This document shows positions 2,793 to 35,697 of a stretch of DNA of 64,000 nucleotides, piece by piece (position 1 is the stretch's first letter; every line of letters starts with the position of its first letter). Position numbers and translations under genes: made by a program. The stretch is from an uncultured bacterium. GTDB lineage: Bacteria; Bacillota_I; Bacilli_A; RF39; UBA660. The DNA lies in the NCBI GenBank assembly GCA_946560065.1, contig CAMNUE010000001.1, forward strand, positions 62,805 through 126,804, in the 5' to 3' direction. The notes below the pieces were generated by a model. It saw only the letters and a program-made list of their open reading frames with translations. It was not told where the DNA came from and made no database searches.

Positions 2793-2850
2793 TTTGACTG
2801 TTATTTAGGAGAAGGTGTTTCTCCAAAACCAAAGAAAGGAGGCAAGAATA

Positions 2851-3246
2851 ATGGCAAGTGACGGAGAGATTCTTGATTATAAAGATTTACTAAACAAATT
2901 CAATCTAACTGATGAGTTCTACCCACTTGTGTATGTATGTTCTCCATATAGAGGAAACATAGAAGAGAATACTCAAAAAGCTAGAGAGTATAGTAGATTC
3001 ACATTTGAAAAGAAAAACATACCAATAACACCACATCTTTTATACCCGCAATTCATAAATGACGATGACCTGTTTGAAAGAAACATTGCGATTCACAAAA
3101 TCAACTATGTTCTTTTAGGGCTTTGTAAAGAAGTGTGGGTTTTTGGTGATGTCATTACAGAAGGAATGAAACGAGAAATATCTGTTGCGAAGAAGAGAAA
3201 AAAGCCAATTAGGTATTTCAATCACGATTTAAAGGAGGAGAGTTAA
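2851..3246 (+). CDS. DUF4406 / nucleoside 2-deoxyribosyltransferase-like protein (tentative)
   Basis: Start moved from GTG 2815 to ATG 2851, which has an AAGGAGG RBS. VYVCSPYRG ... EVWVFGD pattern resembles the DUF4406 family. Confidence 0.45.
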   Translation: MASDGEILDYKDLLNKFNLTDEFYPLVYVCSPYRGNIEENTQKAREYSRFTFEKKNIPITPHLLYPQFINDDDLFERNIAIHKINYVLLGLCKEVWVFGDVITEGMKREISVAKKRKKPIRYFNHDLKEES

Positions 3247-7313: not shown

Positions 7314-7721
7314 ATGACAGCAAAAGAATACTTGTTACAGGCTCATTATTTAGATGAACGTATAACATCAAAGACACAACAGATAGCATCCTTAAACGAA
7401 TTAGCAACAAGATGCACGTCTACCATTTCTGATATGCCAAAGAGTCCTAATCGTGGTGGATCAAGAATGGAAGATTGCATTATTAAAATAATTGATTTGG
7501 AAGACAAGCTTAAGGAAGACATAGAAAAGTTAATAAACCTAAAGCAAGAGATAATGGAAGTTATAAGAGCAGTTCCTAACATTGAATACCAAACACTTCT
7601 TGAAAAGAGGTACTTGTGTTTCAACACTTGGGAACAAATATCTGTTGATATGAACTACTCAATACAGCATATACACCGTATGCATAGTTCAGCTTTGAAA
7701 GAAATTGTAGTTCCAAGTTAA
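7314..7721 (+). CDS. ArpU/RinA-like (DUF1492) phage late transcriptional regulator
   Basis: 135 aa. C-terminal sigma region-4-like HTH (YQTLLEKRYLCFNTWEQISVDMNYSIQHIHRMHSSALKE). Lies immediately upstream of the packaging genes. Confidence 0.6.
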   Translation: MTAKEYLLQAHYLDERITSKTQQIASLNELATRCTSTISDMPKSPNRGGSRMEDCIIKIIDLEDKLKEDIEKLINLKQEIMEVIRAVPNIEYQTLLEKRYLCFNTWEQISVDMNYSIQHIHRMHSSALKEIVVPS

Positions 7722-7794
7722 GATGAGAGTAAATGTGATAGTATGAGACTATGGTCTTGTGATATTATTATAATGGAAGAAATTAGAATGATGA

Positions 7795-7828
7795 AAGCCT
7801 TATGGGGAAACCTGTAGGGCTTTTATTA
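7795..7828 (+). terminator. Possible terminator hairpin
   Basis: AAGCCTTA-12 nt loop-TAGGGCTT (one G-U pair) followed by TTATT. Weak. Confidence 0.35.
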
Positions 7829-7849
7829 TGCAAGAAAGGAAAAGGAAAG

Positions 7850-8224
7850 ATGCCGAAGAAACCAAAGCGTCCATGTTCTTACCCAGGATGTCCACGATTA
7901 ACAGACGGTAGGTTTTGTTTAGAACATGAGAAACAAGAAAACAAAAGGTATGAACAATACGATAGAAGTCCAGAAGTAAAGAAAAGGTACGGACGAGTTT
8001 GGAAAAGAATAAGAGATAGCTATGCAAAAGAGCACCCTTTGTGTGAGAAGTGTTTGGAACAAGGTGTGTACAGAGCGATGGAAGAGGTACATCATAGATT
8101 ACCTCTTGCAGAAGGTGGAACACATGACAGAAAGAATTTGATTTCACTTTGTAAATCATGCCATGCAACGATTCATGCTGAACGAGGAGATAGATGGAAA
8201 CCTAAACCAAAATATTATAGGTAG
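7850..8224 (+). CDS. HNH endonuclease (terminase-associated)
   Basis: Start moved to ATG 7850 because the upstream part of the ORF is the hairpin. Motif EVHHRLPLAEGGTHDRKNLISLCKSCHATIH. Sits next to terS, as in cos-type HK97-like phages. Confidence 0.85.
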   Translation: MPKKPKRPCSYPGCPRLTDGRFCLEHEKQENKRYEQYDRSPEVKKRYGRVWKRIRDSYAKEHPLCEKCLEQGVYRAMEEVHHRLPLAEGGTHDRKNLISLCKSCHATIHAERGDRWKPKPKYYR

Positions 8225-8326
8225 GGGGGAGTCAAATCTCTAAAAAGTAAGAGCAGTGCAACGGGCGTGGGGTCTTATGTGTAAAAAAAGCGAATTCAAA
8301 AGGGTATTAAAGGGAGGTGAGATTAA

Positions 8327-8884
8327 ATGCCAACAAAATCAAACAACATCGGTGGTAGAGGTGGTGCAAGAATTGGTGCTGGAAGGAAAAAATCAGCAAT
8401 TAAAGAAAAAGCACAAAATGGAAATCCAGGTGGTAGAACTTTAGAGACTTTGGATATTCCAGAAATCGAAGGAGCAGAGATGCCAAAGCCACACGAGTTC
8501 TTATCTGAAAAGCAACGTGATGGAAATGAACTACAAGCAAAAGAGATATACCAAGAAACATGGAAGTGGCTTAAAAAAGTAGGCTGTGCTCAAAAAATCT
8601 CGCCACAGCTTTTGGAGAGATATTCGATGTGCAGTGCAAGGTGGATACAATGTGAAGAACTAACTAACAAGTTGGGACTTTTATCAAAACATCCCACTAC
8701 TCAAAAACCAATACCATCGCCATTCATAAATATAGGTATCAATTATATGAATCAAGCAGTTAGATTATGGAATGAGATATTCCAAATAGTAAAAGAAAAT
8801 TGCAGTACTTCTTATGAAGATGCTGCACCACAAAATGATTTGATGGAGAGACTATTAAGAGCAAGAGAGGAGAGAAAAAAATGA
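8327..8884 (+). CDS. Terminase small subunit (P27-family-like)
   Basis: Gly/Arg-rich N-terminus GGRGGARIGAGRKKS. Size and position fit a small terminase. GGGAGG RBS. Confidence 0.7.
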   Translation: MPTKSNNIGGRGGARIGAGRKKSAIKEKAQNGNPGGRTLETLDIPEIEGAEMPKPHEFLSEKQRDGNELQAKEIYQETWKWLKKVGCAQKISPQLLERYSMCSARWIQCEELTNKLGLLSKHPTTQKPIPSPFINIGINYMNQAVRLWNEIFQIVKENCSTSYEDAAPQNDLMERLLRAREERKK

Positions 8885-9663
8885 TAGAAAAGGTTAATCC
8901 AAAGCACCCAGATAAAATTGCAGATAGAATTGCAGGTGCAATAGTTGATTTAGGATATAAGTTACAAGACAATCCTAAAATAGCAGTTGAGGTTTTAATA
9001 GGACATGGAGTTTGCTATGTAATTGTTGAAACATCAGTAGATTTTAATAAGGAAGATATAGAAAATATCATCACAAGAATAGCAGGAGATATGACAAAAG
9101 ATATCGTATTAGTTCCACAAGATATACACTTATCTAAAAACCAAGAGAAAGAGATAAGATGTGGAGATAATGGAATATTTAAAGGGACACCTTTAACTGA
9201 CGAGCAAAAGAAGTTATCTGAAATTGCTCGTTTTATTTATGAAAAATATCCAAGCGATGGTAAGTACATTTTAGATAATGAAAAACTAATTATTTGTCAA
9301 AGCAATTGTAAGACAGAGGAATTAAAAGAATTGTATCAAGATGCAACAATCAATCCATTAGGTGATTGGACAGGAGGAACTGATGTTGATACAGGTGCTA
9401 CCAATAGAAAACTTGGTTCTGATATGGCAGATGGTGTAACTGGTGGAGGACTTCATGGTAAGGATCTGTCAAAAGCAGATGTGTCAGTAAATATTTATGC
9501 TTTCTTGAAAGCTCAAGAAACTAATGAAGTTGTGAAGATATCATGTGCTATTGGTGATAAAGAAGTAGATGGAAGACCTTATGAAGAAATAGTAAACATT
9601 GCTAAAGATTACATTGAGTCTATCGGTGGATTTGAGAAATTCGCTGAATGGGGACTTTTTTAG
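8881..9663 (+). CDS. Compact (260 aa) S-adenosylmethionine synthetase (MetK)-like protein
   Basis: Retains MetK signatures: KHPDKIADRIAGAIVD (cf. GHPDKI.DQISDA), CGDNGIF (cf. GDQG), SDGKY (cf. PDAK), GATNRKL (cf. GLTGRK), GGGLHGKDLSKADVS (cf. GGGAFSGKD.SKVDRS). About 130 aa shorter than canonical MetK. ATGA overlap with terS. Confidence 0.6.
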   Translation: MIEKVNPKHPDKIADRIAGAIVDLGYKLQDNPKIAVEVLIGHGVCYVIVETSVDFNKEDIENIITRIAGDMTKDIVLVPQDIHLSKNQEKEIRCGDNGIFKGTPLTDEQKKLSEIARFIYEKYPSDGKYILDNEKLIICQSNCKTEELKELYQDATINPLGDWTGGTDVDTGATNRKLGSDMADGVTGGGLHGKDLSKADVSVNIYAFLKAQETNEVVKISCAIGDKEVDGRPYEEIVNIAKDYIESIGGFEKFAEWGLF

Positions 9664-9675
9664 GAGGTGGATAAA

Positions 9676-10935
9676 ATGTCTAAAACAACAACAGAAATGC
9701 AACTAATATCAATTGATAAATTAGTTCCTTATGTGAATAATGCAAGGACACACTCGGCAGAACAAATATTGAAACTTCGTTCTTCACTTAGAGAGTTTGG
9801 ATTTGTTAATCCAATAATAATTGATAGAGAGTTTAATGTAATTGCTGGTCATGGAAGATTGATGGCAGCTAAAGAAGAAGGAATAGAAGAAGTACCATGT
9901 GTGTTCGTTGACTACTTAACTGATGCTCAAAAGAAAGCATATATTTTAGCAGATAACCGTATGGCAATGGATGCAGGTTGGGATGAAGAATTACTTAAAA
10001 TAGAAATGGAAGAATTACAAAATCTAGGATACGATTTAGAGTTTACTGGATTTGATGAAAAAGAACTAGCTGACTTATTTGGAGTAGATGACAAAGAAGT
10101 AAAAGAGGATGAATTTGATTTAACCGCTGCCCTTGAAAAAGCAAGTTTTGTTGAAAGAGGAGATGTGTGGTTCGTAGGAAAGCATAAGTTGATGTGTGGT
10201 GATGCAACATCAAGTGAGGATGTAGCAAAACTAATGGAAGATAAAAAAGCAAACTTAATCTTAACCGACCCACCTTACAACGTAGCTTTCAAAAGTTCTG
10301 ATGGATTAACAATCCAAAATGACAGTATGGATAATAATGACTTCTATGAGTTCTTATATTTATCCTTTAAAAATATGGCAGACCATTTGGAAAACGGTGG
10401 TGCTGCATATGTATTCCATGCTGATACAGAAGGCTTGAATTTTAGAAAAGCTTTTATAGATGCAGGATTTCATTTAGCAGGTTGTTGCATATGGGTAAAA
10501 GATAGTTTAGTACTTGGTCGTTCAGATTATCAATGGCAACATGAACCTGTTTTATATGGTTTCTTGCAAAATGGAAAACATCCATGGTATTCAGATAGAA
10601 AACAAACTACTATCTGGAACTTTGATAAGCCTAAAAAGAACTCAAATCATCCAACTTCTAAACCGCTTGATTTATTAGCTTATCCAATAAACAATTCAAC
10701 TCAGGCTAATGCAATTGTTATAGACACATTTGGTGGTAGTGGATCAACACTTATGGCTTGTGAGCAAATGAATAGAATTTGCTACACAATGGAACTTGAT
10801 GAAAAATATGCATCAGTTATTTTAAGAAGATATGTTGAAGATACTAACGATAGTGAAAATGTGTATGTAATTAGAGATGGTGTGAAGATATTGTATAAAG
10901 ATTTAGTTAAAGAGGTAGAAGTTGATAATGGATAA
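9676..10935 (+). CDS. ParB-like nuclease domain fused to N6-adenine/N4-cytosine DNA methyltransferase
   Basis: Start at ATG 9676 (AGGAGG RBS). N-terminal ParB-like motif (IIAGHGRL). LILTDPPYN (DPPY catalytic motif) and C-terminal FGGSGST SAM-binding motif. Confidence 0.85.
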   Translation: MSKTTTEMQLISIDKLVPYVNNARTHSAEQILKLRSSLREFGFVNPIIIDREFNVIAGHGRLMAAKEEGIEEVPCVFVDYLTDAQKKAYILADNRMAMDAGWDEELLKIEMEELQNLGYDLEFTGFDEKELADLFGVDDKEVKEDEFDLTAALEKASFVERGDVWFVGKHKLMCGDATSSEDVAKLMEDKKANLILTDPPYNVAFKSSDGLTIQNDSMDNNDFYEFLYLSFKNMADHLENGGAAYVFHADTEGLNFRKAFIDAGFHLAGCCIWVKDSLVLGRSDYQWQHEPVLYGFLQNGKHPWYSDRKQTTIWNFDKPKKNSNHPTSKPLDLLAYPINNSTQANAIVIDTFGGSGSTLMACEQMNRICYTMELDEKYASVILRRYVEDTNDSENVYVIRDGVKILYKDLVKEVEVDNG

Positions 10936-12301
10936 AGAACTGACACTTGCAAGTTTATTTGACGGAAGTGGTGGTTTTCCATTAGGTGGGATGTTAGCAG
11001 GGATTAAACCTGTATGGAGTTCAGAGATAGAGCCATTTGCAATAAGGGTAACAACTAAAAGATTATCCAAAGTAAAGCATTATGGCGATATTACTAAAAT
11101 AAAAGGAAATGAAGTAGAGCCCGTAGATATAATTACCTTTGGAAGTCCATGCCAGGATATGTCGATAGCGGGTAAAAGAGCAGGATTAGACGGAAGCAGG
11201 TCTAATCTTTTTTATGAAGCAATAAGAGTAGTAAAAGAAATGAGGTGTGCAACTAATGGAGAAAAGCCAAGATATATTGTCTGGGAAAATGTCACAGGAG
11301 CCTTCTCTTCAAACAAAGGGGACGACTTCAAAAGTGTCCTTGAAGAAATCTGCAAAGTCAAACATCAAGAATTGTCTATTCCTAAACCTGCAAAGTGGCA
11401 ACAAGCAGGAACGATTATGGGAGATGATTTCTCAATCGCATGGCGAGTATTTGATGCTCAGTTTTGGGGAGTTCCCCAGAGAAGAAATCGTATCTACCTT
11501 GTCGCAGATTTTGGAGGAAACAGTGCCTCAAAAATACTATTTGAGTCAGAGGGCTTGTCAGGGTATTCTAAGGAGAGCTTCAAGTCGTGGCAGGACTCTT
11601 CCAGAAACATTGAAGATAGCATTAGAGAATCAGGCAAGTTAGATTTATTTGAAAATCACTCGCAAGATTTAAGATATAAAGGACCATTGAATGTTGCACC
11701 AACAGTTCTTTCAACTTATGGAACTGGTGGCAACAATCAACCATTTATTGTTCATTCAAAAAACTATGATGTAAGATTAACATCTGAAGGTACAAAGAAT
11801 GCAAGGAATAATGTGTATGAAACAGAAACATCTAGAACTCTTGATACTAATGGAAACTTTCCAAATTCAAATCAAGGTGGAGTAGCAATTGTTTATTCGA
11901 CAAGCAAGAGTTCATTTCATATTAGAGCAAGTGAAAATCTAGCTAATACATTAATTGCAACTGACTATATGGATCCTCCAATAGTGAATGATAAGTTAAG
12001 AGTTAGAAGACTTACACCAAAAGAATGTGCAAGACTTCAAGGTTTTCCTGATTGGTGGTGTTCTAATTTAGAAACAAAAGAACCAACCAAAGAAGATATT
12101 GATTATTGGAGAGAAGTATTTAATGAAAGTTCTAAAGCAGAAGGAAAAAACAAAAAAGAAAAGACAGATAGCCAAATAATTAAATGGCTACAAAATCCTC
12201 ATTCTGATTCAGCTGAATATAAGTTATGGGGGAATGGTGTAGCACTTCCATGTGTTTACTTTGTTCTATCTGGAATCGAGTATTATGCACACATCACTTG
12301 A
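10928..12301 (+). CDS. DNA (cytosine-5)-methyltransferase
   Basis: LFDGSGG (motif I), GSPCQDMSIAG (PC motif IV), WENV (motif VI), QRRNR (motif VIII), C-terminal GNGV (motif X). Confidence 0.9.
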   Translation: MDKELTLASLFDGSGGFPLGGMLAGIKPVWSSEIEPFAIRVTTKRLSKVKHYGDITKIKGNEVEPVDIITFGSPCQDMSIAGKRAGLDGSRSNLFYEAIRVVKEMRCATNGEKPRYIVWENVTGAFSSNKGDDFKSVLEEICKVKHQELSIPKPAKWQQAGTIMGDDFSIAWRVFDAQFWGVPQRRNRIYLVADFGGNSASKILFESEGLSGYSKESFKSWQDSSRNIEDSIRESGKLDLFENHSQDLRYKGPLNVAPTVLSTYGTGGNNQPFIVHSKNYDVRLTSEGTKNARNNVYETETSRTLDTNGNFPNSNQGGVAIVYSTSKSSFHIRASENLANTLIATDYMDPPIVNDKLRVRRLTPKECARLQGFPDWWCSNLETKEPTKEDIDYWREVFNESSKAEGKNKKEKTDSQIIKWLQNPHSDSAEYKLWGNGVALPCVYFVLSGIEYYAHIT

Positions 12302-12331
12302 TAAATATGTGTTTTAGAGTGATATATGTAA
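12296..12331 (+). promoter_or_regulatory. Conserved promoter-like element, copy 1 (upstream of DUF4314 gene)
   Basis: ACTTGATAAATATGTGTTTTAGAGTGATATATGTA: a TTGATA -35-like box plus a TG-extended -10-like TGATATAT. Overlaps the dcm stop codon. Confidence 0.55.
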
Positions 12332-12349
12332 TGCAAGGAGGTAAACAAT

Positions 12350-12568
12350 ATGATGTTTCCAAAAAAAGAAATCGTTGAAAGAATACGAAAAGAATATCCA
12401 AAAGGAACAAGAGTAAGGCTTATAAAGATGGATGATATGCAGGCTCCACCACTTGGAACAGAAGGGACTGTAATTGGTGTAGATGATACTGGATCAATTA
12501 TGGTTGCCTGGGACAATGGTAGTTCTTTAAATGTTATTTACAATGTCGACAAATGTATCAAAATATAG
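12350..12568 (+). CDS. DUF4314 domain protein
   Basis: 72 aa. GTRVRLIKMDD..PPLGTEGTVIGVDDTGSIMVAWDNGSSL matches the DUF4314 pattern common on conjugative elements and phages. GGAGG RBS. Confidence 0.55.
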   Translation: MMFPKKEIVERIRKEYPKGTRVRLIKMDDMQAPPLGTEGTVIGVDDTGSIMVAWDNGSSLNVIYNVDKCIKI

Positions 12569-12598
12569 CAAAAAATATACACTTATTTTGCCTAAATG

Positions 12599-12634
12599 AC
12601 TTGATATATATGCCTTTTAGAGTGATATATATAC
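12599..12634 (+). promoter_or_regulatory. Conserved promoter-like element, copy 2 (upstream of amidoligase)
   Basis: ACTTGATATATATGCCTTTTAGAGTGATATATATA. TGATATATA occurs at 12602 and 12623, exactly 21 bp apart. Confidence 0.55.
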
Positions 12635-12676
12635 ATAACAAAAAGAGGAAATCTTATATAAAGAAAGGTGAGTAAG

Positions 12677-13633
12677 ATGAGTGAAAAAGCAATAAGACAA
12701 TCCGAAAAAATGAAAGAACAAACAATCGGAGTAGAAGTTGAAATGAATAACATAACCAGAGAGAAAGCTGCAAAGATAGCAGCCGAGTTATTTGGAACAG
12801 GCAGATATGAATACACAGATAATAGAAATGGATACTTAACATGGTCTGCCTGGTCAAGTGACGGAAGAGAATGGAAGTTTCAAAGAGATACAAGTATTTC
12901 TGGAGTAGAAAGTAAAAAATGTGAATTGGTAACACCAATATTAAAGTATGACGATATTGAAACATTACAGGAACTAATAAGACTTTTAAGGAAAGCAGGT
13001 GCAAAGAGTGATGCAACAAGAGGATGCGGAGTTCACATCCACATAGGAGCAGATGGACACACACCTCAAACAATGAGAAACCTAGCAAACATTATGGCAA
13101 GTCATGAATTGTTGATAGCAGATGCATTAAAACTTGATTCAATGAGAATGGCTAGATATTGCAGAACAGTTAATCCAGAGTTCTTAAGAGTACTTAATAG
13201 AAAGAAACCAAAGACAATGTCAAAATTCGCAGACATTTGGTATCAAACACAAAATGCTAGTTATTATAGAAATCAGCATTACAACGATAGCAGATACCAT
13301 ATGCTAAACTTCCATGCAACATTTACAAAAGGAACTATTGAATTTAGATTATTTCAATTTGATCCACCAGCAGAAGGAAAACAAAATGGACTTCATGCAG
13401 GACAATTAAAAAGCTACATTCAATTTTGCCTAGCATTAAGTCAAATGGCAAAAGATGTGAAATTTGCATCAGCCAAAAGACAACAAAATGATAATCCAAA
13501 ATATGCAATGAGAACATGGTTATTAAGATTAGGATTCATTGGAGATGAATTTAAAACAGCAAGAGATGTATTAACAAAAAGACTTGAAGGTGACACAGCA
13601 TTTAGACAAAAAAGAGTAAGCTCAAGGAGTTAG
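12677..13633 (+). CDS. Glutamine-synthetase-like amidoligase (Amidoligase_2 family)
   Basis: Start at ATG 12677 (AAAGGTGAG RBS). Motifs IGVEVEM, CGVHIHIG, RYHMLNF and GTIEFRLFQ are typical of the family as I recall it. Confidence 0.65.
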   Translation: MSEKAIRQSEKMKEQTIGVEVEMNNITREKAAKIAAELFGTGRYEYTDNRNGYLTWSAWSSDGREWKFQRDTSISGVESKKCELVTPILKYDDIETLQELIRLLRKAGAKSDATRGCGVHIHIGADGHTPQTMRNLANIMASHELLIADALKLDSMRMARYCRTVNPEFLRVLNRKKPKTMSKFADIWYQTQNASYYRNQHYNDSRYHMLNFHATFTKGTIEFRLFQFDPPAEGKQNGLHAGQLKSYIQFCLALSQMAKDVKFASAKRQQNDNPKYAMRTWLLRLGFIGDEFKTARDVLTKRLEGDTAFRQKRVSSRS

Positions 13634-13716
13634 CCTCCTGGTACTTTAATCGGCAGCATTGACTGCCCTTAAGGTGGTAGAAGGGTAATCCCTTGAAAAA
13701 GAAAGGAGGATATCTT

Positions 13717-14202
13717 ATGGAGAGGAGATATTATATAGCTTACGGTAGTAATTTAAATGTTAGACAGATGAAATACAGATGTCCAACAGCAAGGATTATT
13801 GGAACATCGGTTATTAAGGATTATGAATTATTATTTAAAGGTAGTAAGACAGGTTCTTATTTAACCATTGAAAAAAAGAAAGGCGAACAAGTACCAGTAG
13901 TAATTTGGGAAACAAAAGAAAGTGATGAACTTGCACTTGATAGATATGAAGGATGCCCACAGTTTTATTACAAAACTGAAATGTATCTTCCAATCAAAGG
14001 AATTAAATCAAAAAAGATAAGAATTAGAAAAGCCTATGTTTATATAATGCATGAAGATAGAGAACTTGGAATACCAAGTCAACATTATTTGGGAACTTGC
14101 CTTGAAGGATATTTAAGGTTTGGTTTTAATCCAGATTATTTAGTAGATGCTCTGAATAAAAGTAAAAGTGGGAGGATAGAAGATGAAGAAGGAATTGAAT
14201 AG
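13717..14202 (+). CDS. Gamma-glutamylcyclotransferase (GGCT/AIG2-like)
   Basis: Start at ATG 13717 (AGGAGG RBS). N-terminal YIAYGSNLN..M..RCP motif and downstream ..LDRYEG.. characteristic of the GGCT fold. Confidence 0.7.
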   Translation: MERRYYIAYGSNLNVRQMKYRCPTARIIGTSVIKDYELLFKGSKTGSYLTIEKKKGEQVPVVIWETKESDELALDRYEGCPQFYYKTEMYLPIKGIKSKKIRIRKAYVYIMHEDRELGIPSQHYLGTCLEGYLRFGFNPDYLVDALNKSKSGRIEDEEGIE

Positions 14203-14383
14203 GACAAGAAAATGTCCAAAATGTGGAGCAGAATATCAAGGACATCCTGCAATATCAAGAAGAGATAATAAAACACCAATATGTCCCGATTGTGGAACAA
14301 GGGAGGCACTTGAGTCAATAGGTGTTGATATTAAGGAACAAGAACACATCATTAAAACAATACATAGAACTCAAGAAAAATAA
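14183..14383 (+). CDS. Zinc-ribbon protein (66 aa), unknown function
   Basis: CPKCG ... CPDCG four-Cys ribbon. Overlaps the GGCT 3' end by 20 nt, suggesting translational coupling. Confidence 0.5.
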   Translation: MKKELNRTRKCPKCGAEYQGHPAISRRDNKTPICPDCGTREALESIGVDIKEQEHIIKTIHRTQEK

Positions 14384-14403
14384 AACTAAATAAATATTTT
14401 TTG

Positions 14404-14432
14404 AAAGCACTTCATTTATGGAGTGCTTTTTG
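14404..14432 (+). terminator. Rho-independent terminator closing the accessory cassette
   Basis: AAAGCACT-10 nt loop-AGTGCTTT followed by a T run. Lies inside the 5' extension of the listed terL ORF. Confidence 0.7.
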
Positions 14433-14452
14433 TGTGGAAGGGAGATGATAAA

Positions 14453-16054
14453 TTGAGAAAGTTAAAGAACTATAAGCCAACAAAGTTTATGGCTAAAACA
14501 AGCTACTATGATGAAGATGCAGCAGATTTTGCAGTTGCTTTTATTGAGAGCCTTTGTCATACAAAAGGAACGTGGGCAGGAAAGCACTTTGAATTAATAG
14601 ACTGGCAAGAACAAATCATCAGAGATATCTTTGGTGTACTTAAACCTAATGGATACAGACAATTCAATACTGCTTATATTGAAATTCCTAAAAAGCAAGG
14701 TAAGTCAGAACTTGCAGCGGCAGTAGCACTGTTACTAACTTGTGGTGATGGAGAAGAAAGAGCTGAAGTGTATGGGTGTGCTGCAGATAGAAACCAAGCG
14801 AAAATTGTATTTGATGTTGCAGTAGATATGGTTAAGTTCTGTCCTGCATTATCAAGAAGAGTAAAAATATTAGAGTCGCAGAAAAAACTAATATACAAAC
14901 CAACAAATAGTTCTTATCAAGTGTTATCTGCAGATGTTGCTAATAAACATGGTTTCAATACTCATGGCGTTATATTTGATGAATTACACACACAACCTAA
15001 TAGGAAATTGTATGATGTAATGACTCAAGGTTCTGGTGATGCAAGAATGCAACCTTTGTATTTCTTAATTACAACAGCAGGAAATGATACTAACTCAATT
15101 TGTTATGAAATACATCAAAAGGCAAAAGATATTGAAAAAGGAAATAAAATTGACCCTACATTTTATTCAGTAATTTATGGTGCTGATGAAAGCGAAGATT
15201 GGACTGATCCAAAAGTATGGAGAAAAGCAAATCCGTCACTTGGAATAACAGTTGCTGAGGATAAAGTAAGAGCTGCTTGTGAATCAGCACAACAAAATCC
15301 TGGAGAAGAAAATGCATTCAGGCAATTGCGACTCAACCAATGGGTAAAACAATCAATAAGATGGATGCCTATGGAAAAATGGGATTTGTGTGGTGGAAAA
15401 ATTATAGAAGAAGAATTAGAAGGTCGTGTATGTTATGGAGGATTAGACTTATCATCCACAACAGATATAACGGCTTTTTCTTTAGTCTTTCCACCAATAG
15501 ATGATGAGGAAGAATATATTGTTCTACCTTACTTTTGGATACCAGAAGATACTCTTGATTTGAGAGTTAAAAGGGATCATGTTCCTTATGATGTATGGCA
15601 AAGACAAGGTTTCTTACAAACAACTGAAGGGAATGTAGTTCATTACGGTTATATTGAAAAGTTTATAGAAAAGTTAGGAGAAAAATTTAATATTCGAGAA
15701 ATTGCATTCGATAGATGGGGAGCAGTACAGATGGTTCAAAATTTAGAGAACATGGGATTTACTGTTGTTCCATTTGGACAGGGATTTAAAGACATGAGTC
15801 CACCAACTAAAGAATTAATGAAACTAACACTTGAAAAGAAACTTCGTCATGGAGGTCATCCAATTTTAAGATGGAATATGGACAATGTCTTTATTAAAAC
15901 TGACCCTGCTGGAAATATAAAAGCAGATAAAGAAAAGTCTACTGAAAAAATAGATGGAGTAATTGCAACTATTATGGCACTTGATAGAGCAATTAGATGT
16001 GGTAGCAGTTTAAGTGAAAGTGTCTATGATAACAGAGGAATTTTATTCTTATAG
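14453..16054 (+). CDS. Terminase large subunit
   Basis: Start proposed at TTG 14453 (GAAGGGAG RBS), downstream of the terminator; ATG 14489 is an alternative. Motifs IPKKQGKSELAA (Walker A-like), VIFDELH (Walker B), and nuclease-domain GLDLSSTTD and IDGVIA. Confidence 0.9.
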   Translation: MRKLKNYKPTKFMAKTSYYDEDAADFAVAFIESLCHTKGTWAGKHFELIDWQEQIIRDIFGVLKPNGYRQFNTAYIEIPKKQGKSELAAAVALLLTCGDGEERAEVYGCAADRNQAKIVFDVAVDMVKFCPALSRRVKILESQKKLIYKPTNSSYQVLSADVANKHGFNTHGVIFDELHTQPNRKLYDVMTQGSGDARMQPLYFLITTAGNDTNSICYEIHQKAKDIEKGNKIDPTFYSVIYGADESEDWTDPKVWRKANPSLGITVAEDKVRAACESAQQNPGEENAFRQLRLNQWVKQSIRWMPMEKWDLCGGKIIEEELEGRVCYGGLDLSSTTDITAFSLVFPPIDDEEEYIVLPYFWIPEDTLDLRVKRDHVPYDVWQRQGFLQTTEGNVVHYGYIEKFIEKLGEKFNIREIAFDRWGAVQMVQNLENMGFTVVPFGQGFKDMSPPTKELMKLTLEKKLRHGGHPILRWNMDNVFIKTDPAGNIKADKEKSTEKIDGVIATIMALDRAIRCGSSLSESVYDNRGILFL

Positions 16055-31719: not shown

Positions 31720-31749
31720 AGAGATATGAAAGCAAAATCATATCTCTTT
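31718..31749. terminator. Bidirectional terminator
   Basis: Perfect 12-bp stem AAAGAGATATGA / TCATATCTCTTT with an 8-nt loop, between convergent genes. Confidence 0.65.
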
Positions 31750-32019
31750 TAATTTTAATGGATTTTCTTCAACTATTTCTAATTTATACTTTTCTTTCAA
31801 TATTTGTTTTATATCAGTGATAACTTTATCAGTATTTTCAAAATAGATATTGAAAACATCTGCTGCCGAATTAAAATGCTGTTTCAATGATGACGTGCCA
31901 AGAACATCTAATGAATAACCTCTTGCCAGATAAAATGCAATATAAGGTGCAGCAACATTTTCTTCAATATAATGTTCACATTCACGCACAAATTTATCTT
32001 GATTTATTTCATCGTACAT
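31738..32019 (-). CDS. Hypothetical protein (93 aa)
   Basis: AGGAGG RBS on the minus strand (ctaggagg). Preceded by promoter-like element copy 4. No recognisable domain. Confidence 0.5.
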   Translation of the reverse strand: MYDEINQDKFVRECEHYIEENVAAPYIAFYLARGYSLDVLGTSSLKQHFNSAADVFNIYFENTDKVITDIKQILKEKYKLEIVEENPLKLKEI

Positions 32020-32040: not shown

Positions 32041-32078
32041 TATATATCACTCTTTTTTTTTGTAAAAAGTCAAGTGAT
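32041..32078 (-). promoter_or_regulatory. Conserved promoter-like element, copy 4 (looser, minus strand)
   Basis: The reverse complement reads ACTTGAC-TTTTTACAAAAAAAAA-GAGTGATATATA. It shares ACTTGA and GAGTGATATATA with copies 1-3, but the spacer is 2 nt longer. Confidence 0.45.
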
Positions 32079-32740: not shown

Positions 32741-32776
32741 ACTTGATATATACATCATTTAGAGTGATATATAGTA
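32741..32776 (+). promoter_or_regulatory. Conserved promoter-like element, copy 3 (upstream of serine recombinase 1)
   Basis: ACTTGATATATACATCATTTAGAGTGATATATAGTA. TGATATATA occurs at 32744 and 32765, 21 bp apart. Confidence 0.55.
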
Positions 32777-32798: not shown

Positions 32799-34160
32799 AT
32801 GCGAAAAATAACAAAATTAGAAACAAAAAACATAGAGCTTCCTAAACTTAAAAGAGTAGCTGCTTATGCAAGAGTATCAGTTGAAAGAGGCAGAACACTA
32901 CATTCTTATTCTGCTCAAGTTAGTTACTACAATGAATTAATACAAAAAAATCCAGAGTGGGAATTTGCAGGAGTTTATTCTGATTTAGGTATAAGTGGTA
33001 CAGGAATTGAAAAACGTAATGACTTTAAAAGGTTATTACAAGATTGTGAGGAAGGCAAGATTGATATTATTCTTACAAAATCTATTTCAAGATTTGCTAG
33101 AAATACAGTTGACCTTTTAAATGTAGTAAGGCACTTAAAAGAATTAGGTATTGAAGTTAGATTTGAAAAAGAAGGCATCAGTTCCTTAACAGGGGATGGA
33201 GAACTTATGCTTTCAATACTAGCTTCATTTGCTCAAGAAGAGGTTATATCAACAAGTAACAATATTAAATGGGCTATAAAAAAGAAATTTGAAAGTGGGA
33301 AACCTCAATGCAGATATAAGATATATGGGTATCGTTGGGATAGTGATAATTTAGTAATAGAACCTGAAGAGGCAAAAATAGTAAAGCTCATATTTGAAAT
33401 GTATTTAAATAAAGTATCAGCAGAAAGAATGGAGATAGAACTTAAAAAGATGGGTGTGATTGCAACTAATGGAGGATATTTTAATATTGGAACTATTAGA
33501 GATATGCTATTAAATATAACTTATACTGGAAATTTATTATTACAAAAATCCTATACACCAAATCCCTTGGTAAGAAGAAAACAAAAAAATAATGGACAAC
33601 TTCCAAAATACTATGTCGAGAATAACCACGAAGCCATAATTCCTATGGAGATGTTTATGCAAGTTCAAGAAGAAAGGAAAAGAAGAAAGGCAGAAGGTCA
33701 AAGAGCTAATTTTGGTAAAAATATAACCTGCTTTTCTTGCAGAGTTAAGTGTCCGATATGTGGCAAAAACTATATGAGAAATTCAAGGTCTAGAAGGTCT
33801 AATGGCATAAAGGCTCATATATGGACTTGTGGCACTAGATTAACTGGTGGATCAAAAGCTTGTCCAGCAAAAACTATAAATGAAATCGCACTAAAAAGGG
33901 TATCTACTAAAGTTCTTGGATTAGATGAATTTGACTCAAATGCATTTGATGAACAAATAGAAAAAGTAATTGTAATTGGTGATGATGTTTTAGAATTTCA
34001 TTTTAATGATGGAAGGATAATAAGTGAAAAATGGGAATTTAATGGTAGGAAGGAATATTGGACAGAGGAAAGAAGAAAAGAGCGAGGAGAAAAGCTAAAA
34101 AAGATTTGGAGGGAAAAAAATGTCAAAAAAAGTAACGACAATACCAGCGTTATTAAATAA
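32799..34160 (+). CDS. Large serine recombinase 1
   Basis: Resolvase catalytic domain VAAYARVSVERG..SYSAQ, ILTKSISRFARNT, recombinase domain and a Cys-rich zinc ribbon (CFSCRVKCPICG). 453 aa. Confidence 0.9.
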   Translation: MRKITKLETKNIELPKLKRVAAYARVSVERGRTLHSYSAQVSYYNELIQKNPEWEFAGVYSDLGISGTGIEKRNDFKRLLQDCEEGKIDIILTKSISRFARNTVDLLNVVRHLKELGIEVRFEKEGISSLTGDGELMLSILASFAQEEVISTSNNIKWAIKKKFESGKPQCRYKIYGYRWDSDNLVIEPEEAKIVKLIFEMYLNKVSAERMEIELKKMGVIATNGGYFNIGTIRDMLLNITYTGNLLLQKSYTPNPLVRRKQKNNGQLPKYYVENNHEAIIPMEMFMQVQEERKRRKAEGQRANFGKNITCFSCRVKCPICGKNYMRNSRSRRSNGIKAHIWTCGTRLTGGSKACPAKTINEIALKRVSTKVLGLDEFDSNAFDEQIEKVIVIGDDVLEFHFNDGRIISEKWEFNGRKEYWTEERRKERGEKLKKIWREKNVKKSNDNTSVIK

Positions 34161-35697
34161 GCAATCTACAAATCAGGCTGGGGCAATAAAAAAGAGGAGA
34201 GTTGCTGCTTATGCCAGAGTTTCAACCGACCAAGAAGAACAATTAACAAGTTATGAGGCACAGGTTGATTATTATACAAATTATATTAAATCAAGAGATG
34301 ATTGGGAATTTGTCGACGTTTATACTGATGAAGGTATAAGTGGTACATCTACCAAGCATCGTGAAGGATTTAACAAAATGGTTAAATCTGCATTAGATGG
34401 TAACATCGATTTAATCATTACAAAGTCTGTTTCAAGGTTTGCTAGAAATACAGTAGATAGTTTAACAACTATAAGAAAACTAAAAGATATAGGATGTGAA
34501 TGCTATTTTGAAAAAGAAAACATCTGGACATTTGATGGTAAGGGTGAGTTGCTGCTTACAATAATGAGTTCATTAGCACAAGAGGAAAGTAGATCCATAT
34601 CAGAGAATGTTAAATGGGGACACAGAAAAAGATTTGCAGATGGTAAGGTATCAGTGCCATTTAATAATTTCCTAGGATATAAAAAAGGAGAAGATGGAAA
34701 TCTTGTTATTGATGAAGAACAAGCAATAATAGTAAAAAGAATATATCGTGAATTTTTATCAGGGTCATCATCTGTTGCTATTGCAAAGGGACTAACAAAT
34801 GATGGAATAGAGACTCCAGGACATAAACAAAAATGGTATGCTACAACTGTTAGGAGTATTCTTACCAACGAAAAATATAAAGGAGATGCCTTACTTCAAA
34901 AGCATTATACCGTTGATTTCTTAACTAAAAAGCAAAAAATAAATGAAGGAGAGGTACAACAATACTATGTTGAAAATAACCATCCTGCGATTATAGAACC
35001 AGATGTATTCGAGATGGTAAGATTAGAAATTGATAGACGATTAATGCTTAAGGGTAAGTATAGTGGAACTGATATTTTGACAGCGAAGATTAGATGTGGG
35101 GAATGTGGTGGTAGCTATGGAGCTAAAGTATGGCATTCAAATGATAAGTATAGAAGGGTAATGTATCAATGCAATAGTAAATACTCTGGAAAAGAGAAAT
35201 GTAAAACACCCGCAATAAGGTCTGAAGATATTGAAAGCAGATTTGTAAACGTAGTTAATATATTAATTGAAAGTAAAGATGAGATAATTTCAAATTTAGA
35301 AAAAGTACTTGATAAGATATGTAATAAAAAAGAACTATCAAAAGAAAAAGAAAAACTAGAGAATAGCCTAACAGAGCAAGTAGAAAAAATACAAGAACTT
35401 ATTGATATGAATTCAAGAGTAGCACAAAACCAAGAAAAATATAAAAAAGAATATGATGCCATGATAAAAACTTATGATGAAACAAAGTTTAAGTATGAAC
35501 AGTTAGAAATTGAATCATCACAACAAGCAGCAAAGCATCAGATGATAAAAGACTACATTAATACTTTAAAGAAACAAAATAAACCTTTGACAAAGTTTGA
35601 TGGATTAATGTGGGGGAGCTTACTAGAAAGTGCAACAATTAAAGATAAAGATACCATAGTATTTAAATTTAAAGATGGAACAGAAATAAATGGATAA
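34120..35697 (+). CDS. Large serine recombinase 2
   Basis: VAAYARVSTDQEEQLTSYEAQ, IITKSVSRFARNT, zinc ribbon CGECGG and a C-terminal coiled coil. 525 aa. Overlaps recombinase 1 by 41 nt. Confidence 0.9.
   Translation: MSKKVTTIPALLNKQSTNQAGAIKKRRVAAYARVSTDQEEQLTSYEAQVDYYTNYIKSRDDWEFVDVYTDEGISGTSTKHREGFNKMVKSALDGNIDLIITKSVSRFARNTVDSLTTIRKLKDIGCECYFEKENIWTFDGKGELLLTIMSSLAQEESRSISENVKWGHRKRFADGKVSVPFNNFLGYKKGEDGNLVIDEEQAIIVKRIYREFLSGSSSVAIAKGLTNDGIETPGHKQKWYATTVRSILTNEKYKGDALLQKHYTVDFLTKKQKINEGEVQQYYVENNHPAIIEPDVFEMVRLEIDRRLMLKGKYSGTDILTAKIRCGECGGSYGAKVWHSNDKYRRVMYQCNSKYSGKEKCKTPAIRSEDIESRFVNVVNILIESKDEIISNLEKVLDKICNKKELSKEKEKLENSLTEQVEKIQELIDMNSRVAQNQEKYKKEYDAMIKTYDETKFKYEQLEIESSQQAAKHQMIKDYINTLKKQNKPLTKFDGLMWGSLLESATIKDKDTIVFKFKDGTEING

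Follow-up and report, generated by a model that had tools for sequence, protein, structure and literature searches.

In the genomes of 'Candidatus Heliusvirales' phages, a widespread group of temperate Firmicutes siphophages from the gut, DNA methyltransferase and serine recombinase/invertase genes are common, and a C5 methyltransferase is present in 67% and an S-adenosylmethionine (SAM) synthetase in 58.9% of genomes (de Jonge et al., PMC11283538). A prophage of Bacillus cereus ATCC 10987 shows the gene order VRR-NUC, Int, HNH, TerS, ParB-methyltransferase, C5 methyltransferase ... TerL; TerS (Bce_0390) and TerL (Bce_0397) lie several genes apart, and biochemical tests found that the ParB-methyltransferase nicks DNA and that the C5 methyltransferase is multispecific (Xu and Gupta, PMC3592412). 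Late transcription in Gram-positive siphophages has been linked to Ltr proteins, which activate a direct-repeat promoter upstream of terS, the terminase small subunit gene; DUF1492 proteins form family III, LtrB (PMC3753634). Here we analyse a stretch of 64,000 nt (the window) of contig CAMNUE010000001.1 (positions 62,805 to 126,804, forward strand; assembly GCA_946560065.1) from an uncultured bacterium of the Bacillota_I, order RF39. Its genes from position 27 to about 35.7 kb, on the plus strand, are those of a temperate siphophage in which seven genes lie between terS and the terminase large subunit gene, terL (Table 1).

The initial annotation had described these seven genes as an accessory island between two normally adjacent genes. 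They encode a short homologue of SAM synthetase (mini-MetK), a ParB-fused DNA methyltransferase (ParB-MTase), a C5 cytosine methyltransferase (C5 MTase), a DUF4314 protein, an amidoligase, a gamma-glutamyl cyclotransferase (GGCT) and a zinc (Zn) ribbon protein. The inventory of seven genes over 5.5 kb was confirmed, with Pfam and PHROGs identities as called, and so were the junctions: terS and the mini-MetK gene share an ATGA (8881–8884), the ParB-MTase and C5 MTase genes overlap by 14 nt when the latter is read from TTG 10922 (8 nt from ATG 10928), and the hairpin with U-tract is present 20 nt upstream of terL. Besides its Pfam match, terS matches phrog_83, 'terminase small subunit', over its full length (residues 1–184, E 1.3e-36); it lies 103 nt from the HNH gene and 5.5 kb from terL. 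Another, 'real' terS beside terL was considered and rejected for the window, as the gene adjoining terL encodes the 66-aa Zn ribbon and phrog_83 covers 8327–8884 fully. Across about 80 relatives, the TTG start of terL lines up with starts of the ATG, GTG or TTG type, and its ribosome-binding site with GGAGGTG.

As something peculiar to this phage, the island did not survive comparison with its relatives, since the split is the norm of the lineage. Seeding with terL alone gave 80 loci (one genome per GTDB species, terL identity 81–98%), onto which the window proteins were mapped by tblastn; counts were made on the 52 loci whose sequence reaches 9 kb or more upstream of terL. terS was found in 49 of these, and in 47 of the 49 it ends 3.2–8.7 kb before terL (median 5.8 kb). 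In one locus (L139) terS and terL are 2 kb apart with no module genes between them, and in another (L116, 84% terL identity) HNH, terS and terL are adjacent, the terS homologue abutting terL at a distance of 11 nt. The same gene order is seen in 80 IMG/VR contigs and, by megablast and tblastn, in the deposited phages Terrisporobacter TPDSL_ph1, Streptococcus Javan105, Gardnerella vB_Gva_AB1 and Erysipelothrix phi1605 and in several 'Ca. Heliusvirales' genomes, where it reads LtrB, HNH, terS, 260-aa protein, ParB-MTase, (C5 MTase), ..., terL. The terS–terL interval of the window is a typical member of a widespread, heliusvirus-like lineage of gut Firmicutes prophages. Contigs with this Firmicutes-type prophage were also met in metagenome-assembled genomes (MAGs) labelled Spirochaetaceae, Akkermansia muciniphila and Bacteroidales (L089, L115, L118), probably through binning errors.

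Gene frequencies in the 52 loci resolve the slot into a fixed backbone with optional cassettes. Near-universal are the ParB-MTase (49/52) and DUF4314 (50/52), and an amidoligase-family gene of either of two kinds is present in 49/52, so that the relatives largely do carry a fixed core at this place. The commoner kind is a short amidoligase paralogue (216–243 aa, phrog_2443; 'virulence-related protein' in older records), which occurs in 46/52 loci, is directly followed by DUF4314 in 43/52 and is absent from the window. Optional genes are those for mini-MetK (28/52), the C5 MTase (24/52) and the long amidoligase (20/52), GGCT (19/52) and Zn ribbon (20/52), the last three nearly always occurring together. 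The pattern of the window, with all eight genes present, is found in 8/52 loci and is among the three commonest.

A recent, strain-specific insertion between adjacent terS and terL genes is very improbable in view of these counts: the split is nearly constant, and the backbone genes are found in about 95% of loci. In addition, amidoligase (75–80% identity) and mini-MetK (66–77%) are about as conserved as terL, and GC content is uniform over the interval, at 0.33–0.37. What such an insertion would explain is the adjacent arrangement in the close relative L116, and the gain or loss of single cassettes among near-identical phages. Thus a phage whose neighbouring genes are 92–95% identical to those of the window (L013) is without the C5 MTase, and the nearest relative, from an Erysipelotrichaceae MAG (L090, terL 98% identical), has a 512-aa open reading frame (ORF) resembling an insertion sequence transposase (8019–9557, minus strand) between its GGCT and Zn-ribbon genes. 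Together with a distance from Zn ribbon to terL that ranges from 68 to 1702 nt across loci, these cases bear out the idea that the interval behaves as a hot spot for insertion; what falls is the notion that this is peculiar to the phage in the window. The junction of terL and the portal gene is another insertion slot of this lineage, seen in L085 (11680–12405), in L087 (11711–12205) and in roughly half of the loci found by terL, and holding a MerR regulator in Javan105 and an aminoglycoside nucleotidyltransferase in phi1605; in the window the two genes are 16 nt apart.

With moderate confidence, we read the interval as a lineage-typical 'split packaging operon' of heliusvirus-like temperate Firmicutes siphophages, made up of a putative late self-methylation half (half A, 8881–12301) followed by a moron-like half (half B, 12296–14435) with predicted promoters of its own, closed by a likely terminator. 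Morons, in the sense that Juhala and Hendrix reportedly gave the term in 2000 for lambdoid/HK97-like phages, are genes with their own promoter and terminator between late genes. The identities of the genes, the statistics of their synteny and the conservation of motifs and structures are observations.

Table 1. Coordinates of the terS–terL interval and associated features (positions in the window; E, expectation value).
Feature	Position	Strand	Basis or remark
LtrB-type late transcriptional activator (DUF1492)	7314–7721	+	Pfam DUF1492 E 4e-6; phrog_36 transcriptional regulator E 9e-28
Late-promoter-like region	7723–7774	+	Repeats ATGAGAGTA (7723–7731) and ATGAGACTA (7743–7751), then TGTGATATTAT-TATAAT (-10 at 7769–7774)
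Leader hairpin	7795–7830	+	AAGCCTTATGGG-GAAA-CCTGTAGGGCTT + TTATTATG; between promoter-like region and HNH
HNH endonuclease	7850–8224	+	Pfam HNH E 5.5e-12; ORF opens 7802, probable start ATG 7850
terS, terminase small subunit (P27/Terminase_4 type)	8327–8884	+	Pfam Terminase_4 PF05119 E 7e-6, 26.8 bits against cut-off 24.7
Mini-MetK, 260 aa, SAM-synthetase homologue	8881–9663	+	Pfam S-AdoMet_synt_N only; start overlaps terS stop (ATGA)
ParB_N-fused N6/N4 DNA methyltransferase	9667–10935	+	ParB_N + N6_N4_Mtase E 1e-25; phrog_498 E 2e-181
C5 cytosine DNA methyltransferase	10922–12301	+	Long insert between conserved blocks; DNA_methylase E 4e-49; likely start ATG 10928
Cassette promoter-like motif, copy 1	12296–12330 (12-mer 12316–12327)	+	TTGATA ... 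TTTAGAGTGATATAT; before DUF4314
DUF4314, small SH3-like protein	12350–12568	+	Pfam E 1.6e-31
Cassette promoter-like motif, copy 2	12599–12633 (12-mer 12619–12630)	+	Before amidoligase
Amidoligase_2, glutamine-synthetase-like carboxylate-amine ligase	12668–13633	+	Pfam E 1e-54; phrog_2443 E 8e-111; likely start ATG 12677
Conserved structured intercistronic RNA	13615–13717 (core hairpin 13625–13693)	+	Amidoligase stop to GGCT ribosome-binding site
Gamma-glutamyl cyclotransferase/AIG2-like (GGCT)	13693–14202	+	Pfam GGACT E 4.7e-11; phrog_2520 E 1.4e-49; likely start ATG 13717
Zn-ribbon protein, 66 aa	14183–14383	+	phrog_2945
Intrinsic-terminator-like hairpin + U-tract	14403–14435	+	20 nt before terL
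terL, terminase large subunit	14453–16054	+	TerL_ATPase + TerL_nuclease
Cassette promoter-like 12-mer, copy 4	32042–32053	-	Upstream of minus-strand ORF 31738–32019 (93 aa)
Cassette promoter-like motif, copy 3	32741–32775 (12-mer 32761–32772)	+	Before tandem serine recombinases
Two tandem large serine recombinases	32799–35697	+	Preceded by motif copy 3

Half A is tightly coupled to terS, as the initial annotation had it. The mini-MetK, ParB-MTase and C5 MTase genes are joined to terS through overlaps or gaps of at most 12 nt: the ParB-MTase starts at GTG 9667 or, more likely, ATG 9676, just after the mini-MetK stop at 9663, and its own stop (TAA 10933–10935) overlaps the start of the C5 MTase. 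No terminator-like site was found between half A genes by consensus scan and reading of the sequence; a hairpin with T-run at 11182–11209 (plus strand), inside the C5 MTase coding region, may be a chance match. Profile scans of the window ORFs gave no restriction enzyme among the genes neighbouring the methyltransferases, and the best PADLOC model for the C5 MTase is 'orphan methyltransferase' (E 1.5e-152). In PADLOC only generic methyltransferase models matched, with no match for mini-MetK, DUF4314, amidoligase, GGCT or Zn ribbon. A pair of ParB-MTase and C5 MTase at the same position is the one characterised in B. cereus (PMC3592412).

The small first protein of half A belongs to a very large family. 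Clustering at 90% identity leaves at least 8000 groups, and among the 120 best listed members 109 are exactly 260 aa long. MetK is a three-domain protein of about 380–400 aa, the Escherichia coli enzyme bearing the motifs HPDK, GAGDQG, PDxK, DxGxTGRK and GGGAFSGKDxxKVDRS. Alignment of the mini-MetK profile with the full-length MetK of phi1605 (hhalign) spans MetK residues 13–339 with internal deletions. Among 23 family members, HPDK, GDNG, DGK, DTGATNRK and GGGLHGKDLSKAD do not vary, and the patterns DxGxTxRK and GGGxxGKDxSKxD are invariant across the family, which has some 130 residues fewer than MetK. Since the profile alignment keeps the invariant motifs, mini-MetK appears to be a compacted MetK with an intact catalytic constellation, and may be active as an enzyme.

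Half A is translationally chained to terS and would be transcribed from an LtrB-type late promoter upstream of HNH and terS. Its methyltransferases would then modify progeny DNA right before packaging, allowing survival of restriction in the next host, with the compact MetK supplying SAM locally. Just past ltrB, the window has two ATGAGAsTA direct repeats followed by an extended -10-like element, and relatives have 3–4 direct repeats and then TGTGATAT..TATAAT at the equivalent place. This matches the repeat and promoter architecture of Ltr systems and would be expected to function as a promoter. About 20–40 nt downstream of the -10-like element lies a leader hairpin, of 12 bp with a U-rich tail in the window, which is kept in 76/79 distinct related loci with the consensus AAGCCUU..GGG-loop-CC..AGGGCUU + UUCUUAUG.

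Half B carries a different signal. A 35-nt repeat precedes both DUF4314 and the amidoligase gene (copies 1 and 2), to which 100 shuffled sequences gave no match, and it recurs ahead of the tandem serine recombinases. In the wider set of related loci (L001–L168, 2.63 Mb) the 12-mer at its core, AGAGTGATATAT, has 161 exact copies where about 0.3 would be expected by chance according to our calculation; 161/161 are on the gene strand and none on the opposite strand, and all 120 copies that could be fully positioned lie between ParB-MTase and terL. The consensus nACTTGCTATTnnnGnCnTTTAGAGTGATATATGTAnnnACCAAAAG extends over about 40 nt, with a start codon 42–55 nt beyond, and resembles a -35 element (TTGMTA) and an extended -10 element (TGnTATAT), beside which further bases are conserved. 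With nothing but the motif as seed, IMG/VR yielded at least 119 stretches, in which the ORF after the motif encodes a short amidoligase (31), a long amidoligase (24), a serine recombinase (20), DUF4314 (3) or another product (55, mostly small unknown proteins).

The promoters that had been proposed for the last four genes of the interval are thus borne out, as promoter-like motifs, for DUF4314 and the amidoligase. GGCT and Zn ribbon have none of their own, and follow the amidoligase by way of a structured spacer and then a 20-nt overlap between the two genes. Half B would accordingly be a string of moron-like cassettes, each headed by the extended -10 motif (TTGMTA ... TTTAGAGTGATATAT): in the window, DUF4314 is one and amidoligase, structured RNA, GGCT and Zn ribbon are another, with transcription expected to start about 7–10 nt past TGATATAT at each copy. 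As the same promoter would drive the integrase genes, half B is probably expressed in a class other than the late one. The suggestion that genes placed here act late, on DNA about to be packaged, may therefore apply to half A and is doubtful for half B, whose motif is shared with serine-integrase genes, in the window as well as in unrelated samples.

Amidoligase_2 proteins are among the glutamine-synthetase-like carboxylate-amine ligases, and GGCT/AIG2 enzymes break gamma-glutamyl-amine bonds. Of the 20 terL-seeded loci with a long amidoligase, 19 retain the pair; a sequence search of the PDB with the amidoligase found no relative. One may suppose that the two enzymes write and erase a gamma-glutamyl-type amide bond on an amine, and DUF4314, as a near-constant neighbour, may be a partner or a substrate. 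Two other accounts of these genes have to be weighed. In the first, the amidoligase, GGCT and DUF4314 are morons for lysogenic conversion or superinfection exclusion, expressed from the prophage; their targets would be host proteins, the cell wall or small amines, and neither the virion nor its DNA would involve them. A sigma-A-like extended -10 promoter with a closing terminator is classical moron design, the same promoter also heads the integrase and many small unknown ORFs, the PHROGs category of the GGCT family is 'moron, auxiliary metabolic gene and host takeover', and a phage amidoligase has been suggested to modify the receptor or cell wall (PMC11318856, citing Iyer et al. 2009). We consider this possible, on balance doubtful, because the identity of the amidoligase is as high as that of core virion genes and an amidoligase-family gene and DUF4314 are present far more regularly than is usual for optional morons.

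In the second account, all these genes form a single DNA-hypermodification pathway, in which amidoligase and GGCT act on bases (e.g. by way of glutamyl-type adducts) alongside the methyltransferases and the supply of SAM. All are grouped beside the packaging genes, and in viral metagenomes amidoligase/amidotransferase Pfam domains are found together with clusters for thymidine hypermodification (PMC8989533). A possible further tie to nucleotide modification is the DUF7768 gene (2815–3246), between DNA polymerase and primase/helicase, whose counterpart in TPDSL_ph1 is annotated 'nucleoside 2-deoxyribosyltransferase'. Such a pathway seems improbable nonetheless: scanning the ORFs turned up no gene for a 5-hmU kinase, aGPT-Pplase, dUMP hydroxymethylase or TET/JBP enzyme, the amidoligase–GGCT pair is optional (about 38% of loci) where the methyltransferase is near-universal, and the cassettes have a different class of promoter, common to the integrase.

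The spacer between amidoligase and GGCT, of 60–100 nt, is itself conserved in nucleotide sequence, in the form ...CCACCUUA-[GACCGC UUCG GCGGUC]-UUAAGGUGGUAGAAGGGUnnnCCCUU... Its predicted folding energy in the window is -29.4 kcal/mol (z = -3.7), and RNAalifold on a MAFFT alignment of 31 diverse copies gave 18 pairs, 8 of them with compensatory changes. Pairing is kept in 94.9% of cells, compared with 87.2% after shuffling (0/500 shuffles reach the observed value) and 37–52% with slid partners. A covariance model has a single match in the window and one strong plus-strand match in each of 32 related loci, which in every locus checked is directly after the long amidoligase or, on cut contigs, just before GGCT; a weaker match on the opposite strand over the same stretch appeared in 5 loci, and no other site was hit. 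GGUAGAAGG is invariant in an internal loop, and the two arms resemble an anti-Shine-Dalgarno (5′) and a Shine-Dalgarno (3′) sequence. Rfam returned zero matches for any non-coding element; with Rfam 15, no match reached the gathering score in the window, and nothing was found over 13600–13720 at E <= 10. A small ORF or a read-through extension of the amidoligase was ruled out by stops in all frames of the aligned spacers, at positions that differ among relatives. An RNase III or stability site, a protein-binding site and a sensor are candidate roles.

The hairpin before terL (14403–14430) has a centroid energy of -14.4 kcal/mol (z = -3.2) and is followed by UUUUUGUG. A consensus promoter/terminator scanner, which also reported fewer promoter-like sites than in shuffles, missed it, probably since the T-run is partly drawn into the stem by its A/U ends; purpose-written scans with controls were used instead. 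With thresholds of 5 or more bp in the stem (3 or more of them G-C), 3–8 nt in the loop and 5 or more T among the 8 bases that follow, a hairpin with T-run ending 20–53 nt before terL was found in 71/84 loci (84%), compared with 8.3% of random 80-nt windows and 0–13% upstream of genes internal to the interval. The stems have more than 10 different sequences with compensatory changes, and many have GNRA or UUCG loops, which argues for an RNA hairpin. A cos site was rejected on these same properties and the T-run, which suit an RNA terminator and not a protein-binding palindrome under conservation; the TPDSL_ph1 record, which begins at terL base 1, looks like a re-orientation rather than a physical genome end. 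Terminator-like sites also stand before the portal gene in 51% and before the major capsid gene in 26% of loci, at junctions that have taken in additional genes. In most of the loci L092–L168 an extra conserved element, GAGCC-loop-GGCTC-TGTATCTCGTAYA, is seen about 40–95 nt upstream of terL, before the hairpin (e.g. L111 9905–10000), and both are often followed by TTTT(n)TTATGCC; the window is without it.

No promoter would fit between the hairpin and the ribosome-binding site of terL, so that late transcription must cross the hairpins. The initial annotation had asked whether terL depends on read-through or antitermination, and the conservation of the hairpin, with compensatory stem changes, in 84% of relatives makes this a real question. 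Under the split-operon reading, the conserved terminator would end half B and shield terL and the structural and lysis genes from the cassette promoters, and late transcription would pass it through antitermination or partial read-through. Terminator-resistant late transcription on one side, and leaky terminators or stability/processing hairpins on the other, are about equally likely, and insulation against the cassette promoters fits both.

A stronger version is processive antitermination of the late genes, like that of lambda PR'-tR'/Q, in which LtrB or another factor modifies the polymerase, so that it passes efficient terminators located in the leader between LtrB and HNH, ahead of terL and, for about half of the relatives, ahead of the portal gene as well, and the cassettes are tolerated morons. 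Two in-line hairpins with varying stems (leader, pre-terL) and the terminator-like sites before portal and major capsid genes would be expected of it; so would the want of promoter room before terL, and the leader hairpin is placed as a promoter-proximal terminator would be. On the other hand, Ltr proteins have been characterised as activators and not as antiterminators (PMC3753634), no Q-like or N-like gene was identified, and the hairpins could be weak terminators or elements of RNA stability or processing. We hold this version to be conceivable, with the balance tilting away from it. It is tempting to go further, to a late operon run by antitermination, with terminators in the leader, before terL and often before portal that are read through only once a phage factor has modified the polymerase, and that permits a cassette promoter to be reused for placing moron genes, among them the amidoligase–GGCT unit with its new structured RNA, between essential packaging genes; this seems to us rather unlikely. 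Were it so, Gram-positive phages would have Q-like antiterminators in their Ltr-type regulators or in a partner protein.

Several points weigh against the split operon as we read it. The timing of expression, the activity of promoters and terminators and the substrates of the enzymes are deduced from sequence. With late transcripts starting upstream of HNH, a good terminator before terL would favour terS and the methyltransferases over terL and capsid, which is the wrong way round without antitermination. The exactness of TTTAGAG beside the -10 element exceeds what host sigma-A should need, and a dedicated phage factor may read the motif promoters, which could then be of a middle or a late class; TPDSL_ph1 has a sigma factor gene ahead of the point that matches the start of the window. 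Mini-MetK scores 45.8 bits against the metK equivalog model TIGR01034 (cut-off 309.4), and its AlphaFold2 model, from a shallow alignment, is poor (pLDDT 59.5). We know of no Amidoligase_2 protein with a known substrate. The terL-seeded sample covers the shell of 81–98% terL identity, and at 62–70% identity (phi1207.3, L002) a canonical terS adjoins terL, with the module upstream of both: the evolutionary shift lies in the position of HNH-terS relative to the module.

Around the interval, the phage has its replication genes first (an Enc34-type ssDNA-binding protein, a family-A DNA polymerase, DUF7768, a D5-like primase/helicase, VRR-NUC and an SNF2 helicase), and past it the order terL, portal, protease, major capsid, tail genes, GH25 endolysin and the two serine recombinases. 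GC content across the phage is 0.30–0.37 and drops to 0.22–0.28 beyond 36 kb; the values of 0.22–0.24 at 36–38 kb, directly past the recombinases, mark the probable prophage/host junction.

As terS and terL are routinely several kb apart in this lineage, their adjacency is an unsafe assumption for annotation, and a split should not be taken to signal a chimeric assembly. This is of some weight because heliusvirus-like prophages are among the most prevalent human gut phages. Far from being random cargo, the interval combines a near-universal backbone (ParB-MTase, amidoligase-family gene, DUF4314) with optional cassettes, a shared motif and a closing terminator-like hairpin. Its sites bear on how temperate Gram-positive phages keep morons and integrase apart from late genes and how terminators are crossed, and the cis-elements make the expression of terL directly testable. 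The 260-aa MetK family and the structured RNA after the amidoligase are inexpensive and very widely distributed targets for biochemistry.

In comparison with known systems, half B is like morons in its predicted promoters, its closing terminator-like hairpin between two late genes and its variable content, and unlike them in that one motif is reused for many cassettes and the integrase and that an amidoligase-family gene and DUF4314 are nearly universal. Iyer and co-workers are said to have described, in 2009, Amidoligase_2 (PF12224) with an AIG2/GGCT neighbour in Firmicutes; in the window, likewise, the amidoligase is directly followed by AIG2/GGACT on the same strand, and the pair is annotated in other prophages. 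The RNA element between the two genes and the link to DUF4314 are, as far as we could find, undescribed. Ahead of their packaging genes, Phi1207.3 (a Streptococcus prophage) and L002-type heliusviruses have a SAM synthetase, HNH, ParB-MTase, C5 MTase and a DUF4314 homologue in common with the window; unlike the window, they have a strong Terminase_4 terS (E ~1e-30) directly upstream of terL, and the MetK of Phi1207.3 is a three-domain protein of 353 aa, as against 260 aa here. With the Ltr (RinA/ArpU/LtrA-C) systems the window shares a DUF1492 gene at the end of the replication block, and repeats and a promoter-like element downstream of it, before the packaging genes (PMC3753634). In those systems terS and terL follow directly and a terminator precedes the promoter, whereas in the window a hairpin follows the promoter-like element, and about 5.5 kb and a second terminator-like hairpin lie between terS and terL. 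The likeness to B. cereus ATCC 10987 is one of gene order, MetK-like and amidoligase genes not being mentioned in the available part of that paper (PMC3592412). To the 'Ca. Heliusvirales' the likeness is closest in sequence, the window terL being 80–87% identical to those of deposited genomes, with the same order of replication and structural genes and, in L002–L004, the same layout of the interval; the part of the paper available treats the methyltransferase and SAM-synthetase genes as auxiliary metabolic genes, and mentions neither the split of terS and terL nor an amidoligase–GGCT cassette, promoter motif, pre-terL terminator or RNA element (PMC11283538). The architecture was thus already visible in published genomes, and its methyltransferase part had been characterised in B. 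cereus (PMC3592412); new here are the quantified synteny and four conserved cis-elements, namely the putative cassette promoter, the terminator-like hairpin before terL, the leader hairpin and the amidoligase RNA.

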